Shown piece after piece: positions 29,361-57,826 of a stretch of 64,000 nt of DNA. Location of the stretch: the NCBI GenBank assembly GCA_036253495.1, contig GCA_036253495.1_4125.1; one strand, 5' to 3'. The notes beneath the pieces are model-generated. The model was not told the DNA's origin, searched no databases, and was given only the letters and a program-made list of their open reading frames with translations. Numbering within the stretch: position 1 is the first letter of the stretch; the number at the start of each line of letters is the position of its first letter. The stretch comes from a phage. The position numbers and the translations under genes are program-made.

Positions 29361-30131
29361 ATGACCAGAGAAGCACGCAGCATTCAAATTCAGAAAAACT
29401 TCAACTCCATGATGGTTGCTCTTGAGTGTTTGCTCGATGATAGCAGTACTGTAAAAAGTATGGTTGTCAGCGGTGCTCCTGGTGTTGGTAAGACTTACAC
29501 CCTCTCTAAACGCCTCCAGAAAGCACATGACGCGGCAGAATGGAACGTAGCTACCATCAGTGGTAAAATGACCACTCTGGCTCTGTACGAAGTTCTGTAC
29601 AAGAATCGTCATAGCACCAACGTGTTAGTACTGGATGATATGGACAGCATCTTTGATTCAGAAGACGGTATGAACCTGCTCAAAGCAGTACTGGATAGTG
29701 GCAAGCGTACTGTTTCTTATATGACTAGCTCGAAGTATCTGAGCAGCAACGGTATCCCTAACAGCTTTGATTTTAATGGTCGCATCGTATTCATTACTAA
29801 CAAAGATTTAGCACTGAATGCTAAAGCTAAAACTAAAATGTCTGCTCACTATGCTGCTCTTATGTCTCGCTCTGTATACGTTGACTTACAGATCCAGACC
29901 AAAAGCGATATCATGATTCACATTGAGAACGTGATGAACCAGACCAACATTCTGGAATCTAAGGGTATTAACAGTAATGGTAGTAAAGCAATCCTGAACT
30001 GGATGTTGAAGCACGAAGATTCACTTCGTTCACCTTCACTGCGTATGCCACTGTTGATTTCGGCAGTATATAACAACAACCCATACGATTGGGAAGAGCA
30101 ATGTGAAAACTTGTTCCTGGAGAAAAATTAA
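29361..30131 (+). CDS. P-loop NTPase (AAA-like ATPase)
   Basis: Walker A GAPGVGKT and Walker B-like VLVLDDMD; codon composition looks GC-richer than its neighbours. Confidence 0.75.
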   Translation: MTREARSIQIQKNFNSMMVALECLLDDSSTVKSMVVSGAPGVGKTYTLSKRLQKAHDAAEWNVATISGKMTTLALYEVLYKNRHSTNVLVLDDMDSIFDSEDGMNLLKAVLDSGKRTVSYMTSSKYLSSNGIPNSFDFNGRIVFITNKDLALNAKAKTKMSAHYAALMSRSVYVDLQIQTKSDIMIHIENVMNQTNILESKGINSNGSKAILNWMLKHEDSLRSPSLRMPLLISAVYNNNPYDWEEQCENLFLEKN

Positions 30132-51570: not shown

Positions 51571-51731
51571 AAAATTTTTATTTTGTTTTTTCCAATAGTT
51601 CCCCTACCGCGTGGGGATGGTTTCCCCGCAGTATCTGGAGTTAGATTTTTCTGAATCTGGAAACATTATCCCAGTTTTAGCGGGGTATGTCAACCGCCTG
51701 GATGAATATTTTTAAAAAATAATCTAGTACT

Positions 51732-51806
51732 GAATTTTGGGCGTAACTATGCACCCGGTGGGCTAGAGTCTTTCTCGACTTGATGAAATAATTATAGCAG
51801 TACTGA
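51732..51806 (+). repeat. conserved noncoding element family A, copy 1
   Basis: ATTTTGGGCGTA..GCACCCGGTGGGCTAGAG..TGATG.AATAATTATAGCAGTACTG. Confidence 0.6.
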
Positions 51807-51906
51807 ATTATAAAAGCAATAGCCTAAGTGTAAAAAGTTTTAATTAATTTGCTTGCCATCCTGGGGCGTACTATGGTACTATGATTCAGTACTGAGAAAG
51901 TACTTT

Positions 51907-51946: not shown

Positions 51947-52015
51947 TGAATTTTGGGCGTAGTTCCGCACCCCCTGGGGTATCCGCTTTCTCGCGTCTAT
52001 GTAGTAATTATACGC
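51947..52015 (+). repeat. conserved noncoding element family A, copy 2
   Basis: ATTTTGGGCGTAGTTCCGCACCCCCTGGGGTATCC..TCTATGTAGTAATTATACGC. Confidence 0.6.
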
Positions 52016-52264
52016 TTTTTTAGTACTGAGTCAATAGCTAAAAACAAAATAATTGAAAATAATTTAACGCGTTTAAACGGCCCGTAAAGCCCTGGATTGT
52101 TGGGAGTGGTGCAAATGTATAGCTTAGGTGTATTAATGCGTTAGAATGCGTCTGAGGCCGTTTTAAGGGTATAGTACTGAATAATTGTACTCACTGGATT
52201 GATTCAGTACTGAATGATAGTACTCCTATATAGAAAGAAAACTATTTTAAAAGTATTTGCAGAA

Positions 52265-53717: not shown

Positions 53718-53799
53718 GCAGTTTACAAATCTTTACAATTGCCGGTATTGACTTATTTTGTCAGTACTGGCATAATGTATCTATTGAAACGAACAATTT

Positions 53800-53824
53800 G
53801 GCCCACGGGGTGCGGGAGTGTATC
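53800..53824 (+). repeat. conserved noncoding element family B, copy 2
   Basis: GGCCCACGGGGTGCGGGAGTGTATC. Confidence 0.5.
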
Positions 53825-53855
53825 TATAGAAAAAGTAGTTTAGTACAGTTACAAT

Positions 53856-53905
53856 TGTGCACCCTATGGGTTAGCTGTTGTCATGGGGTATATTATACCA
53901 GTACT
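53856..53905 (+). repeat. conserved noncoding element family A-like, copy 3
   Basis: GTGCACCCTATGGGTTAGCTG..ATTATACCAGTACT. Confidence 0.45.
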
Positions 53906-53964
53906 TGATAATGCTGTCAATACTTTTTTTTTACTATTCAGTACTGAAAACTATTTTTTAAAAA

Positions 53965-54037
53965 GTACTTGCATACTATGTTTAAAGGCGTATAATGTTT
54001 TACATCAGGACGGGGAACGAAATAAGTAACTCCCCGT
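53965..54037 (+). promoter_or_regulatory. promoter with long 5' hairpin / leader element
   Basis: AGTACTTGCAT, TATAAT, then ACGGGGAACGAAATAAGTAACTCCCCGT; leader resembles 57001-57050. Confidence 0.55.
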
Positions 54038-54085
54038 TAAGTAGCCCAGGAGTAAGGCACACGAAAAACTCCCCTGATAAAATAG

Positions 54086-54113
54086 TTTGACAAATGTTTT
54101 TAAAAGCGTATAA
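54086..54113 (+). promoter_or_regulatory. sigma70-like promoter
   Basis: TTGACA, 16 bp spacer, TATAAT. Confidence 0.55.
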
Positions 54114-54146
54114 TACTTACATCAACTACTGAATGAGAGTTACAAA

Positions 54147-54821
54147 ATGAAAACTATCACTACTACTACTTTCGTTATGGATTTTTCTGAATTGAATGAG
54201 GGTGGCAAAGCGAAAACTATCACTACTACTACTTATGTTATGGCTTTTTCTGAATTGACCGCAGAACAACAAACGTCAGCTATCGAACTGGTTCGGGATC
54301 GTGAGCGTTCATGCGGGGATGATTTCTTTTCTGAGTCAGTGATCGAATACTATAAAGAAACATTATTGCCGGAATATGGCATTAATGACGCAGATTTACG
54401 ATTCAGTGGTTTTTGGTCGCAGGGTGACGGTGCATCAATCAGTACTGATCACGTTGACGGTGTGAAGTTTTTACGCAAGATTAAAGCATTAACTAAGTAT
54501 CGTTCTATCCGTCACCTGCTGAATGAAGATGATTTGGCAATGAGTGTAAAGCGTTCTCACTCCCACTACTCGCATGAAAACACTGTAAGCGGGTACATTG
54601 AATCGGCTTACACTGATTTAACCGCAAAACAAGAAACGTTAGTTAATGAGCTTGAGGAACTACTCACTGAAACTATTCGTGAATTATCTCGCAAGTTGTA
54701 CCGTGATTTAGAGAATGCATATGAGGATCAATTCACTACTGAGAACATTGTAGCACTGATTGAGGGTAACGAATATCAATTCAATGTTATTGATGGCGTA
54801 GTAGAATCAATCGAATATTAA
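54147..54821 (+). CDS. hypothetical protein with N-terminal internal duplication
   Basis: 224 aa; KTITTTTFVMDFSEL repeated as KTITTTTYVMAFSEL. Confidence 0.6.
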   Translation: MKTITTTTFVMDFSELNEGGKAKTITTTTYVMAFSELTAEQQTSAIELVRDRERSCGDDFFSESVIEYYKETLLPEYGINDADLRFSGFWSQGDGASISTDHVDGVKFLRKIKALTKYRSIRHLLNEDDLAMSVKRSHSHYSHENTVSGYIESAYTDLTAKQETLVNELEELLTETIRELSRKLYRDLENAYEDQFTTENIVALIEGNEYQFNVIDGVVESIEY

Positions 54822-54838
54822 TTCAGTACTGAATCAAT

Positions 54839-54857
54839 GGCGGGAGTGGTTCCCGCC
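54839..54857 (+). promoter_or_regulatory. 5' palindromic hairpin (no obvious own promoter)
   Basis: GGCGGGAGTGGTTCCCGCC just upstream of the RBS of 54878. Confidence 0.5.
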
Positions 54858-54877
54858 TATAACCAGGAGTAAGCATC

Positions 54878-55111
54878 ATGATCGAACAAATTCAAACGAC
54901 TACTAGCCGGAGCGGAACGAAAGTACATTCCATCGCTGATACTGATAAAGGTGTACCCTATTGTGCTGTACACGTAAACACTGACGGTGACTATTGGTTA
55001 ACTGTATACGGGCGTTACTCGTTTGCTTTTAGTGCACATAGTAAGATCCTGGAAGTAGTGAAGCCAACGGGTAAAAATATTACCGCTGAAATGTTTTATA
55101 AAAAGCACTAA
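54878..55111 (+). CDS. hypothetical small protein; paralog of 56247..56483
   Basis: Shared GVPYCAVHVNTDG.YW.TVYG ... PTGKNITAEMFYKK. Confidence 0.65.
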   Translation: MIEQIQTTTSRSGTKVHSIADTDKGVPYCAVHVNTDGDYWLTVYGRYSFAFSAHSKILEVVKPTGKNITAEMFYKKH

Positions 55112-55114
55112 AAA

Positions 55115-55176
55115 GTACTTGCAAAGTAATTAGATTAACGTATAATACTTTATATCGAGAGCGGGAATAGTTCCCG
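55115..55176 (+). promoter_or_regulatory. promoter with 5' palindromic hairpin
   Basis: AGTACTTGCAA, TATAAT, GCGGGAATAGTTCCCGC. Confidence 0.65.
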
Positions 55177-55196
55177 CCTATACTGAGGATTATCTA

Positions 55197-55478
55197 ATGA
55201 GCAAAGTAATTAACTATACAGTACTAAGCAAGTCATTGTCTATCAGTGAGTGCACCGATGGTTATTGGCTTTATGATGAAACGCGTGGCATGAATTTAGC
55301 TATGCAGGAGAAAACTACTGATGCGGCATATCTTAAAGCACTGGAATACTACCAGAAGCGTTTAAAGGAAGTAGAAAACGATTATAATAACCTGAAAGCG
55401 AAAGTAGATAATTTCGTTGGTCAATTCGTTGACGATGACGAGGGGCACTACTGCGACCGTTGCGGATCTTACAGTTAA
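55197..55478 (+). CDS. hypothetical small protein
   Basis: 93 aa; C-terminal CDRCGSYS. Confidence 0.6.
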   Translation: MSKVINYTVLSKSLSISECTDGYWLYDETRGMNLAMQEKTTDAAYLKALEYYQKRLKEVENDYNNLKAKVDNFVGQFVDDDEGHYCDRCGSYS

Positions 55479-55495
55479 GTACTAAGGATTATATA

Positions 55496-55699
55496 ATGAG
55501 TGATTTAATTGAACGTATCAAAGAGCTTGAAGAAAAAGAATTGCAGCTAATCGGCTTACAGAATAAAATCTATCATGATTTGGGGAGTTTTATCAATGCC
55601 TGGGATAGTGGCGATCCTGATGCGTTACCTGCTAACCGCCAGGCGATGATCAATGATGTGCGTCGTGTCTTTGAGTATGTTTTTAAGCAATTAAATTAA
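55496..55699 (+). CDS. hypothetical small protein
   Basis: ATG 55496 after TAAGGA; track ORF from 55460. Confidence 0.55.
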   Translation: MSDLIERIKELEEKELQLIGLQNKIYHDLGSFINAWDSGDPDALPANRQAMINDVRRVFEYVFKQLN

Positions 55700-55702
55700 A
55701 AA

Positions 55703-55765
55703 GTACTTGCAATTAGTTTTCAGTACTGTATAATAGTTTACATCAAGGGGAGAAATGGTTCTCCC
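55703..55765 (+). promoter_or_regulatory. promoter with 5' palindromic hairpin
   Basis: AGTACTTGCAA, CAGTACTGTATAAT, GGGGAGAAATGGTTCTCCC. Confidence 0.65.
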
Positions 55766-55784
55766 TGGTAATGAGGAAAATACA

Positions 55785-56006
55785 ATGGCTAACATTACTA
55801 CCCTTTCCCAACTTGAAGCACTGGTTAAATCTATGCGGGAACATGCCGACAATATCGGCGTAAAAGATCCAGCCGTTTGCTTCTGCGACGATGTAAATGA
55901 TGATACACTGGTAATAGCAGAAGTCCAGGACGTTTCTAACTATTCATCGCGTTACACTGGCGGTGTAGCAAATAAAGGTGACTTCTGTTTATACCTTACT
56001 AAGTAA
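55785..56006 (+). CDS. hypothetical small protein
   Basis: ATG 55785 after GAGGAA; track ORF from 55755. Confidence 0.55.
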   Translation: MANITTLSQLEALVKSMREHADNIGVKDPAVCFCDDVNDDTLVIAEVQDVSNYSSRYTGGVANKGDFCLYLTK

Positions 56007-56066
56007 TACAGAGGGGATCGATTGATCCCCTTTATTTTGCAGTACTGAATCATTTAATAGACGGAT

Positions 56067-56127
56067 CTATGCACCCGGTGGGTTAGAGACTGTATCGTCT
56101 TGATGTAGTAATTATGCCAGTACTGGA
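56067..56127 (+). repeat. conserved noncoding element family A, copy 4
   Basis: CTATGCACCCGGTGGGTTAGAG..TCTTGATGTAGTAATTATGCCAGTACTGG. Confidence 0.6.
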
Positions 56128-56169
56128 TGCAGTTGTCAAGAACTATTTTTCAAATACTTTTTATTAAAA

Positions 56170-56225
56170 TACTTGCTAATAGTTTTTAAACGCGTATAAT
56201 GTTTTGCATAGGGGAGCGGTTCCCC
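56170..56225 (+). promoter_or_regulatory. promoter with 5' palindromic hairpin
   Basis: TACTTGCTA, TATAAT, GGGGAGCGGTTCCCC. Confidence 0.6.
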
Positions 56226-56246
56226 TGGTAACTAAGGAATAAGAAA

Positions 56247-56483
56247 ATGCTTGAACAAATCAAAACAACGTCTGCGAATGTAACGGGAACGGTATCACAC
56301 TTTATTGGTGATGAATCGCGGGGCGTACCCTATTGTGCTGTACATGTAAACACTGATGGCAACTACTGGTTTACGGTTTACGGATCTTATTCATTTGGTC
56401 GACCTGGACATCAAAAAATCCTGGATAAAGTACAGCCAACGGGTAAAAATATCACTGCTGAAATGTTTTATAAAAAATCATAA
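56247..56483 (+). CDS. hypothetical small protein; paralog of 54878..55111
   Basis: 78 aa; same conserved core. Confidence 0.65.
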   Translation: MLEQIKTTSANVTGTVSHFIGDESRGVPYCAVHVNTDGNYWFTVYGSYSFGRPGHQKILDKVQPTGKNITAEMFYKKS

Positions 56484-56484
56484 A

Positions 56485-56546
56485 GTACTTGCAATTAGTT
56501 TTTAGTACTGTATAATATTTTACATAGCAAGGGGGAACGGTTCCCC
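56485..56546 (+). promoter_or_regulatory. promoter with 5' palindromic hairpin
   Basis: AGTACTTGCAA, TAGTACTGTATAAT, GGGGGAACGGTTCCCC. Confidence 0.65.
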
Positions 56547-56566
56547 TGGTAACTAAGGATAATCAA

Positions 56567-56866
56567 ATGAAAATTGCAATCATCGCCCTGGCTTTATCTG
56601 TTTCCTCTTTCGCTGTTAATGCGTCATTAGATGTACCTGGTGATAAATTCATTCAGTGCACAGTAGCAATGACAGATGAAAGTACTGGCGAGATTGTTTT
56701 AAAGGATCTGGAATTACAGCCAGAAGCATTTAAAAACGGGCCGTTCCATGAAGAAGACGAAAAAGGTAGCACAACAATTTATTATGATGCAATGAAAAAA
56801 CGTGGTTCTGTCACTGTTATGGATACTGAGAAAGTAACGCATACAGGCGTTATTAACTGCCTATAA
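56567..56866 (+). CDS. putative secreted small protein
   Basis: Signal peptide MKIAIIALALSVSSFAVNAS. Confidence 0.6.
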   Translation: MKIAIIALALSVSSFAVNASLDVPGDKFIQCTVAMTDESTGEIVLKDLELQPEAFKNGPFHEEDEKGSTTIYYDAMKKRGSVTVMDTEKVTHTGVINCL

Positions 56867-56886
56867 TACATCAGTACTGAATCACT

Positions 56887-56913
56887 AGCCCACTATAAGC
56901 AGTGGGCTTTTTT
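56887..56913 (+). terminator. Rho-independent terminator
   Basis: AGCCCACTATAAGCAGTGGGCT + T-run. Confidence 0.75.
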
Positions 56914-56961
56914 GTAGTATCGTAGTACTGGAATACTTTGAAAATAGTTTTAAAAAAGTAG

Positions 56962-57050
56962 TTGACATTACCGCAAAAAGGCGTAGAATGTATTACATCA
57001 AGACGGGGAACACTAAGTAGACCGCCAGTAAGTCGAACGAAAAACTGGAC
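56962..57050 (+). promoter_or_regulatory. promoter plus conserved long leader element
   Basis: TTGACA, TAGAAT; leader ACGGGGAAC..AAGTAG..AGTAAG..CGAAAAACT resembles 54010-54075; about 110 nt 5' UTR. Confidence 0.5.
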
Positions 57051-57112
57051 ACGTCGAGAAAACTTTGATACACTAACTAACGTAAACTAAACTTTAATTG
57101 AGGAATTACATA

Positions 57113-57595
57113 ATGGCTAACGTAAAATCATTCATCAAAGCACTGGTAGCAAATGAAACTAACGTAGCGGCAGAAATCCTGGCCGAACTGGATAGCGATA
57201 CCATGAAAGCAGTACGCAACAATTTTAACATTGCGTACAGCGAAGCGAAAGAACTGCAAGCTAATAAAGCGGCAGCACTTGAAGCTGAGAAGGCAGCACG
57301 CGAAGCTGAATTGCAGAAAACGATTGAAGATATTAACGCCGCCGTCGCTGGGCTTGATCTGGAAGTAGTTACCGAAATGGCACGTAAAGCCCTGGCAGCG
57401 AAATACGGGGAAGACAAGCCAGAAGTAAAAGCTAAAAAATGGATTCAAGAACGTGTGACGGTTGTACTGGATAATGGCGAGGAATACACTGTACCAGTAC
57501 GCGGTAACTGCATTGCGGTAGTACTGGATGCTATCAAAGAAAGCGGATTGACTCGCGAGGAATGGATCGAATCTCATCGCAAAGTTGAAGCATAA
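57113..57595 (+). CDS. hypothetical A/E/K-rich protein
   Basis: ATG 57113 after GAGGAA; track ORF begins at a TTG at 57098. Confidence 0.6.
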   Translation: MANVKSFIKALVANETNVAAEILAELDSDTMKAVRNNFNIAYSEAKELQANKAAALEAEKAAREAELQKTIEDINAAVAGLDLEVVTEMARKALAAKYGEDKPEVKAKKWIQERVTVVLDNGEEYTVPVRGNCIAVVLDAIKESGLTREEWIESHRKVEA

Positions 57596-57616: not shown

Positions 57617-57644
57617 AGCCCACCTTAAACAGTGGGCTTTTTTT
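57617..57644 (+). terminator. Rho-independent terminator
   Basis: AGCCCACCTTAAACAGTGGGCT + T-run. Confidence 0.75.
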
Positions 57645-57660
57645 GTGTCTATAGTATCCC

Positions 57661-57770
57661 AGTCCACCAGCACCGCCTAGAATCGATTCTAACGCATTAA
57701 ACTGATTATCTGATGCATCGCCCTAGCTGGTGGCGTTAAGGTCGTTAGAATGCGATTGAGAGCGTTTAAA
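57661..57770. repeat. long imperfect inverted repeat containing the CGTTAGAATGCG element
   Basis: CCACCAGCACCGCCTAGAATCGATTCTAACGC ... GCCCTAGCTGGTGGCGTTAAGGTCGTTAGAATGCGATTGAGAGCGTTTAAA. Confidence 0.5.
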
Positions 57771-57794
57771 GTATTTTGCAAAAAGTAATAAAAA

Positions 57795-57826
57795 GTACTT
57801 GCACGATAAAGAGATTAGCGTATAAT
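57795..57826 (+). promoter_or_regulatory. sigma70-like promoter
   Basis: AGTACTTGCAC, TATAAT. Confidence 0.55.

Follow-up and report, generated by a model that had tools for sequence, protein, structure and literature searches.

Two leaders with a common core in the early region of a jumbo phage

The stretch of DNA examined here comprises 64,000 nucleotides of contig GCA_036253495.1_4125.1 (NCBI GenBank assembly GCA_036253495.1), referred to below as the window, and comes from an Asteriusvirus-like jumbo phage of Escherichia coli. Our subject is a pair of 5' leaders in its early region, ahead of the genes that start at 54147 and 57113, and the putative structured RNA element of which each leader contains one copy (Table 1). 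The 3.7-kb region around them is 86-94% identical to the Asteriusvirus jumbo phages of E. coli (G17, PBECO4, 121Q, and others). The last 14 kb of the window form a dense array of near-consensus sigma-70 promoters (AAAAAGTACTTGCA..N16..TATAAT..TTACATCA), and downstream of most of these lie a short 5' hairpin (GGGGA..UCCCC), then a ribosome-binding site, then a small gene of unknown function. At about 25 sites on the plus strand between 52262 and 63969, the conserved hairpin (GGGGAGAAAUGGUUCUCCCC and variants) lies at approximately +6 to +30 and precedes a ribosome-binding site, and this combination is the standard leader of the phage; leaders 1 and 2 have its 5' arm only. The proteins encoded downstream of the two leaders both belong to PHROG families of unknown function, and neither has a significant Pfam match.

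Promoter consensus and analogy with the A1 promoter of phage T7 place the start of leader 1 at A54004 and that of leader 2 at A56997. With the latter start, the 5' untranslated region of gene 57113 would be about 116 nucleotides (nt), in agreement with the original prediction, made from the bare sequence, that it is unusually long. The prediction had also held that the two early promoters are followed by a conserved leader, to be judged by pairwise alignment against shuffled controls, and that a second promoter intervenes before gene 54147. Both early promoters are present, as is the second one (P2), a perfect match to the consensus, and the leaders align better than their shuffles. In the alignment, the segment ATCAGGACGGGGAAC of the first leader is matched to ATCAAGACGGGGAAC of the second; a promoter-proximal match, ATCA(G/A)GACGGGGAAC, is common to both, and a 17-nt insertion in leader 1 is followed by an ungapped 33-nt block (54038-54070 against 57014-57046) that is identical at 26 of 33 positions. 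The local alignment score of the full leaders is 44, compared with 16.0 +/- 2.6 for 2000 dinucleotide shuffles, none of which reaches 44. The promoter-proximal ACGGGGAAC is not specific to these leaders, since most early promoters of the window are followed by a hairpin of which it forms the 5' arm; without it the score is 31 against 15.3 +/- 2.6, which one shuffle in 2000 reaches. The leader-specific common part is TAAGTAG..AGTAAG..CGAAAAACT. Scanned with a degenerate pattern of the block, the window gives exactly two matches where zero are expected, and an independent repeat search of the window returns the same pair of leaders (repeat family D12).

Table 1. Promoters, genes, and predicted RNA features of the two leaders (positions in the window)
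Feature	Position	Strand	Description
Leader 1 promoter	-35 at 53969-53974; -10 at 53991-53996	+	TTGCAT, 16-nt spacer, TATAAT; early sigma-70; repeat family D1/D2
Element copy 1 (L1 type)	54004-54078	+	Predicted three-way junction (three helices) with pseudoknot
Copy 1 P1	54004-54009 / 54073-54078		AUCAGG / CCUGAU; begins at the inferred +1
Copy 1 hp1	54010-54016 / 54031-54037		Hairpin 54010-54037
Copy 1 junction	54038-54046		UAAGUAGCC
Copy 1 hp2	54049-54053 / 54068-54072		GGAGU / ACUCC; loop 54054-54067
Copy 1 pseudoknot	54041-54046 with 54056-54058 and 54061-54062		GUAGCC with GGC and AC
Promoter P2	54087-54114	+	TTGACA, 16 nt, TATAAT; 12/12 consensus; 8 nt 3' of copy 1; serves gene 54147
Gene 54147	54147-54821	+	Downstream of leader 1; 224 amino acids; phrog_5162
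Leader 2 promoter	-35 at 56962-56967; -10 at 56984-56989	+	TTGACA, 16-nt spacer, TAGAAT; early sigma-70
Element copy 2 (L2 type, without hp1)	56997-57069	+	Predicted from comparative evidence
Copy 2 outer helix	56997-57002 / 57064-57069		AUCAAG / UUUGAU
Copy 2 inner P1	57002-57005 / 57052-57055		GACG / CGUC
Copy 2 junction	57014-57022		UAAGUAGAC
Copy 2 hp2	57025-57029 / 57044-57048		CCAGU / ACUGG; loop 57030-57043
Copy 2 pseudoknot	57017-57022 with 57032-57034 and 57037-57038		GUAGAC with GUC and AC
Gene 57113	57113-57595	+	Served by leader 2; 160 amino acids; phrog_27871

The common block is predicted to be the core of a pseudoknotted RNA

Comparison across phages shows the block common to both leaders to be the core of a compact, putatively pseudoknotted RNA of about 45-75 nt, located just downstream of strong sigma-70 early promoters. 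We consider the existence of this structured RNA, together with its distribution, to be well supported and hold both with high confidence. Four helices with compensatory changes can be recognized, namely an outer helix (P1), two hairpins (hp1 and hp2), and the pseudoknot that the junction forms with the loop of hp2. P1 encloses the junction and hp2 and has a fixed position in T7-like phages, in which it takes the form of at least seven complementary helices (GUCAA/UUGAC, GUCAUC/GAUGAC, GUCGGU/ACCGAC, GAUUAG/CUAAUC, GUCAC/GUGAC, UCAAC/GUUGA, and GCUAA/UUAGC), with both-sided changes in five of its six pairs. Directly 5' of the junction is the variable hairpin hp1, in which three pairs have changed on both sides. 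The stem of hp2 has 4-6 base pairs and occurs as CCUG/CAGG, CUUG/CAAG, CCAG/CUGG (copy 2), and GGAG/CUCC (copy 1), four of its five pairs showing changes on both sides. Its loop of 14-17 nt, (A)UAAG-N'-C-NN-ACGAAMAAC, folds back on the junction UAAGUAG-N-C, such that GUAGNC pairs with GN'C..AC.

This pseudoknot, in which the junction GUAG-N-C meets the loop G-N'-C-x-(U)AC, can be followed through the pair N/N'. Among 30 distinct cores the pair is A-U in 23, U-A in four, C-G in three, and unpaired in none; the search patterns left N and N' free and imposed several of the invariant columns, and since the sequences are related, such counts overstate the number of independent events. A G-C pair is found in L138, a metagenomic T3-like contig. 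The pair also switches between close relatives, from C-G in copy 1 to U-A in the 121Q copies and from C-G in contig L028 to U-A in contig L055, which argues for several independent events. When hp1, P1, and hp2 are taken jointly, 89.6% of the cells in the alignment pair, compared with 73.9% after column shuffling and 16-35% in slid registers; ten pairs show both-sided changes, and covariation gives a score of 0.41, attained by none of 500 shuffles, compared with 0.13. RNAalifold predicts P1 and hp2 without guidance from 27 T7-like sequences. The unpaired nucleotides are near-invariant between T7 and the jumbo phages, and the stems have drifted.

Both window copies consist of the junction UAAGUAG-N-C followed by hp2 with the loop (A)UAAG-N'-C-NN-ACGAA, and both lie within approximately 100 nt of a strong sigma-70 early promoter, taking the starts given above. 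Their N/N' pair differs, being C-G in copy 1 and A-U in copy 2. Structure prediction, which had been proposed as a check, gives a mixed answer. Copy 1 folds with a minimum free energy of -22.2 kcal/mol (z -2.9), and an 83-nt stretch around it is 91-100% identical in Asteriusvirus and Justusliebigvirus. The nested-only minimum free energy of copy 2, on the other hand, is no better than that of shuffles, as would be expected if much of the stability sits in the pseudoknot, so that the case for copy 2 rests on comparative evidence: in its orthologues from 121Q and EJP2, bases have changed and all helices are retained. A covariance model of the junction and hp2 (model R1), whose training alignment includes both window copies and T7, scores copy 2 at 53 bits and copy 1 at 47.4 bits in a scan of the window, with the next best hit at 8.8 bits and hence no third copy. 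Copies from 121Q, EJP2, and CMSTMSU that were outside the training alignment score 31-49 bits, and in these, too, base changes have left the helices intact.

The element recurs across unrelated virulent phages

Beyond the orthologous leaders of Asteriusvirus phages, which are matched by leader 2 in blastn searches, the core of leader 2 matches phiA1122, a T7-like phage of Yersinia, at 553-587, the Erwinia jumbo phage Hallingskeid, and a group made up of Munch-like jumbo phages of Salmonella and Klebsiella phage fENko-Kae01. The 83-nt leader 1 is 91-94% identical in Justusliebigvirus phages (outra, muut, and others), with genomes of about 145 kb. The element is therefore found in three settings, the T7 group, other Rak2-like jumbo phages, and Justusliebigvirus. 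In T7 it occupies nt 551-592, within the transcript from A1 (start 498) and directly 5' of A2 (start 626), and its last bases are the -35 hexamer of A2. A blastn search with a K1F-type copy returned 532 phage records with one copy each, from hosts of the genera Escherichia, Klebsiella, Salmonella, Enterobacter, Yersinia, Citrobacter, Cronobacter, Serratia, Pantoea, Edwardsiella, and Aeromonas. Where such a record begins at the terminal repeat, the copy is about 0.5 kb from the left end; in jumbo-phage records that begin at the terminal repeat, copies are 3.4-6.9 kb from it. Jumbo phages have several copies per genome, with three in 121Q and a doubling where the copy falls in the terminal repeat. 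Pattern scans of IMG/VR and metagenomes added dozens more T7-like and jumbo-phage contigs.

In bacteria the element is essentially absent. A scan of 185,579 bacterial genomes (one per species) gave three pattern matches, and we do not regard these as bacterial or prophage copies: one is a T7-like contig in a metagenome-assembled genome, one a weak chance match, and one is unrecognized by model R1. Pattern matches inside coding sequences have no stem or pseudoknot complementarity and were discarded as chance. The same applies to a eukaryote-looking repeat, (GTAA)n-TAAGTAGG..AGCTTCTAAGGCRCACGAAA, found in nine metagenome contigs, which has no hp2 stem and a G/G combination at the pseudoknot position.

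A second promoter usually follows the element. In 47 of 58 distinct contexts a strong sigma-70 promoter is present no more than 110 nt downstream, and in 25 of these 47 the promoter begins at most 10 nt from the end of the hp2 loop motif. At the loci read directly (T7, phiA1122, and T3-like), the -35 of the downstream promoter overlaps the 3' strand of P1. The next promoter lies 0 to about 45 nt away; the other 11 of the 58 contexts, window copy 2 among them, lack a following promoter. The element moves as part of a cassette that comprises promoter, leader, and second promoter. P2 is conserved along with the element in 121Q, outra, and muut, and in these three phages the L1-type copies stand 5' of unrelated genes. 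The L2-type copy of Asteriusvirus has lost the second promoter that is kept in Munch-like and Hallingskeid phages, and copy 2 consequently belongs to the only leader of gene 57113.

The L2-type element is syntenic with the gene 57113 family in Rak2-like jumbo phages. We also observed that the product of gene 57113 has an N-terminal motif in common with that of the gene after the L2-type element in Munch, Hallingskeid, and EJP2, genes that match one another with an E value of about 1e-16. Judging from these protein sequences, gene 57113 appears to be a distant homologue of the Munch/Hallingskeid/EJP2 gene, in which case the RNA and the gene would be an old syntenic unit that Rak2-like jumbo phages have near the end of their genomes.

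Comparison with known leader RNAs

The segment between A1 and A2 of T7 (551-592), with its counterparts in T3, K1F, phiYeO3-12, phiA1122, and other Studiervirinae, is the same element as the window copies. The T7 copy has the junction UAAGUAGACAG, the hp2 loop (A)UAAGUCNNACGAAAAAC, P1, and the pseudoknot, and model R1 gives it 64 bits, T7 being part of the training set. The promoters and initial transcribed sequences are homologous as well (AUCGAGAGGGACAC in T7 and AUCAAGACGGGGAACAC in the window). The two forms differ in the placement of hp1. In T7-like phages it lies beside the 5' strand of P1, so that the pseudoknot is of the H type, and the A2 -35 usually coincides with the 3' strand of P1; window copy 1 has hp1 nested in P1, which makes a three-way junction, and copy 2 has no hp1. 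In the searchable literature we found no description of T7 551-592 as an RNA element, the segment being quoted as promoter DNA only. Rfam 15 has no match in the window at gathering scores, and at E <= 5 it gives nothing relevant for T7 1-1500 or for the loci of Munch and outra. We therefore treat the element as a previously unnamed family of structured leader RNA, akin in kind to the put and nut signals of early leaders and a member of neither.

The put RNAs of phage HK022 are about 70 nt long, lie just downstream of early promoters, and need no phage protein; they remain on the elongating RNA polymerase (RNAP) without a tether and suppress pausing and termination (PMC9378689). The likeness of our element to putL and putR is one of functional analogy only, in size and in placement after an early promoter used by host RNAP. 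The nut-type sites, namely boxA-boxB of lambda and boxB-boxA-boxC of the rrn operons, are leader RNA signals for host elongation factors. T7 has an rrn-type boxA at 812-824, and three T7-like contigs (L028, L055, and L053) have a boxA 20-40 nt after the element. In the window, boxA (GCUCUUUAACAA) has eight matches with at most two mismatches against 8.5 expected, none of them in the leaders. With its 14-17 nt, the hp2 loop is also unlike the GNRA-like pentaloop of boxB. Riboswitch aptamers and autoregulatory pseudoknots, such as the leaders of T4 gene 32, S15, and the alpha operon, resemble the element in size, pseudoknot, invariant junction and loop, covarying stems, and position in a 5' leader; unlike these, the element has no expression platform and no tie to one gene.

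A by-eye likeness of the junction to 16S rRNA (861-875 and 1142-1165) had suggested an rRNA mimic (h26a-h27 or h39-h40). Alignment to rrnH is no better than shuffles in five of six variants; for copy 2, four of 200 shuffles reach the score, and model R1 on rrn gives 9.4 bits (E 0.5), and we rejected the idea. Motifs for CsrA and Hfq, the ops element, sigma-dependent pause elements, small open reading frames, and ribozyme or riboswitch classes were considered by inspection, and none fits.

The T7-like phages show further conservation nearby. The leaders after A2 and A3 are also strongly conserved (for example, GGUGUCUUCUAGGUGACUUAAGCGCACC after A2; T7 626-830 and T3/K1F-like loci), and a T7 hairpin just 5' of boxA, GGUC-UAACGAAACCU-GACC, has a loop that resembles the ACGAAA part of the hp2 loop. 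These conserved leaders and the pre-boxA hairpin may be further structured RNAs.

Other features of the early region

A 63-nt tandem duplication at 54130-54255 (87% identical; repeat family D8) spans the ribosome-binding site of gene 54147 together with its start codon and first 15 codons, and the protein therefore starts with a repeated MKTITTTTFVMDFSEL-like segment. A standard leader (AUCAAUGGCGGGAGUGGUUCCCGCC and a ribosome-binding site; family D7) lies at 54833-54877, 5' of gene 54878, and no promoter precedes it; the arrangement looks like the outcome of a promoter deletion that left the gene to be co-transcribed with 54147. Between the terminator at 57617-57645 and the promoter at 57798 is a non-coding stretch of about 145 nt (57646-57790) with an 8-base-pair inverted repeat, CCACCAGC..GCUGGUGG, and a predicted fold no better than shuffles (z -0.3). 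Four short units on the minus strand (56008-56139, 53780-53920, 51700-51834, and 51958-52034) each have a near-consensus sigma-70 promoter and the motif CCCAYNGGGUGCA (family D6). One of them, running from 56104 to 56008, would give an RNA of about 97 nt that ends at a bidirectional terminator (56010-56040; fold z -2.6), and another, from 53885 to 53780, is predicted to form a long hairpin (z -3.9). From such sequence features we regard the four units as candidates for small RNAs that run divergently from the early gene array or antisense to it. The window contains no tRNA or tmRNA gene.

Possible roles of the element

The original prediction took the conserved leader to be a cis-regulatory RNA, in the form of an attenuator or a protein-binding operator, or else a short independent transcript. 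The general idea of a functional RNA has held up, its helices covarying across hundreds of phages, whereas the particular forms suggested have not. Neither leader has a terminator-like hairpin with a U-tract, as an attenuator would need; the element stands 5' of unrelated genes in different phages and 5' of promoter A2 in T7, which speaks against a gene-specific operator; and the window element is not a stand-alone small RNA, there being no 3'-end signal after it and copy 2 lying within the only recognizable mRNA leader of gene 57113.

What, then, might such an RNA do? Near-invariant unpaired nucleotides combined with drifting stems imply either recognition by a conserved host macromolecule or a demanding tertiary fold. 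We tentatively favour an RNA that, by analogy with HK022 put, would fold co-transcriptionally and act in cis on the host elongation complex. The element would be made by host RNAP from the strongest early promoters, before any phage protein, and on DNA that probably enters first. It would probably fold as it is transcribed and bind a conserved host macromolecule, the most likely partner being the transcribing RNAP itself, and it could alter elongation in cis through anti-pausing, anti-termination, or passage through the strong promoter just downstream. That promoter may act both as a sigma-dependent pause site and as an occupied roadblock, and an RNA that aids passage would explain the arrangement. 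More broadly, and no more firmly, we entertain a protein-independent RNA device in the first transcript of all these virulent enterobacterial phages, T7 included, which might reprogramme host RNAP in a put-like manner with another fold, or might disarm a host factor, and which would spread as a promoter-leader cassette.

Several points weigh against an action on RNAP. The link to the polymerase rests on analogy with put, and the analogy is imperfect, since put, from a lambdoid temperate phage, has two stem-loops and the element has three helices and a pseudoknot. Model R1 finds no match in the 24-30 kb region of HK022, which holds PL and PR (the O gene starts at 30029), put sequences themselves not having been aligned. 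The association of the element with promoters may reflect the inherited structure of a cassette, by common descent, and not function. Within the window, only two of about 25 early units in this part have the element, and nearby genes each have their own promoter (57798, 58033, and 58331), with no visible dependence on read-through from the element-bearing promoters. An argument for antitermination from gene layout was dropped in this light, because the genes after the terminator at 57617-57645 have their own promoters at 57798 and 58033. In addition, we know of no report of special elongation behaviour of A1 complexes from decades of in vitro work on T7 A1. In T7, RNase III cuts at R0.3 and frees the leader, and this suits an RNA acting in trans equally well.

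An RNA acting in trans is indeed the alternative that we take most seriously, as a possibility slightly behind the one above. Here, an abundant folded RNA would serve as a decoy or aptamer that binds and neutralizes or recruits a host protein, RNA, or small molecule in the first minute of infection, either freed by RNase III, as in T7-like phages, or as the 5' domain of mRNAs, as in jumbo phages. Near-invariant unpaired nucleotides with covarying stems are what aptamers and protein-binding RNAs display, and the multiple copies in jumbo genomes, the release of the T7 leader, and the restriction of the element to virulent phages of Enterobacterales and Aeromonas are in line with this. So is the near-constant presence of a second promoter after the element, which would suit an expression unit of its own placed ahead of the promoter of the gene. 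However, no 3'-end signal follows the element, and the roughly one hundred RNAs that a single genome copy yields early in infection would not suffice to titrate abundant factors. Nor has a candidate partner emerged: by inspection there is no GGA motif for CsrA and no ARN repeat for Hfq, and the comparisons with the rRNA operon and with the riboswitch and leader families of Rfam, described above, offer none.

It is rather doubtful that the element is a mechanically stable protective or insulating fold at the 5' terminus, which would shield the early mRNA from RppH and RNase E or standardize the 5' untranslated region. The outer helix does take in +1 to +6 in both window copies, other early leaders of the phage have a simpler 5' hairpin at the same place, and leader 2 is the only leader of gene 57113. 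Nevertheless, a protective hairpin would not need about 20 nucleotides that are invariant from T7 to the jumbo phages, and transcripts from the second promoter do not contain the element at all. In T7-like phages the element is not 5'-terminal, a separate 5' hairpin preceding it, and it is cut from every coding RNA at R0.3, as is established for T7.

We consider it very improbable that the conservation reflects DNA, in the form of an upstream region (UP element or factor site) for P2 or A2. In T7-like phages GAAAAACAGG at about -46 to -38 of A2 matches, by inspection, eight of nine positions of the proximal UP-subsite consensus, and the 3' strand of P1 is the A2 -35; yet compensatory changes in four helices are beyond what protein-DNA contacts can explain, the next promoter does not lie at a fixed distance, and the L2-type copies of Asteriusvirus are conserved with no functional second promoter, and as a sole explanation a DNA-level role is disfavoured. 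An attenuator or operator specific to genes 54147 and 57113 has equally little chance, for although the element lies in 5' untranslated regions and the L2-type copy keeps company with one gene family in Rak2-like phages, there is no terminator-like site in 53997-54146 or 56990-57112, the ribosome-binding site is not sequestered, the L1-type copies precede unrelated genes, and the T7-like copies precede promoters and not genes.

Implications

Few phages have been studied as thoroughly as T7, whose A1-A3 region serves as a standard tool of transcription biochemistry. Our analysis indicates that a 40-70-nt part of the T7 A1 transcript is a deeply conserved, predicted pseudoknotted RNA that T7 has in common with jumbo phages and Justusliebigvirus. 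If, as we tentatively propose, this RNA acts on RNAP, it would represent a new class of RNA-only elongation regulator, testable in the established T7 A1 in vitro systems. A decoy, by contrast, would amount to a takeover or anti-defence factor made of RNA and expressed ahead of all phage proteins. Whichever holds, the element provides a sequence signature for immediate-early transcription units and an example of the horizontal transfer of regulatory cassettes between unrelated virulent phages.

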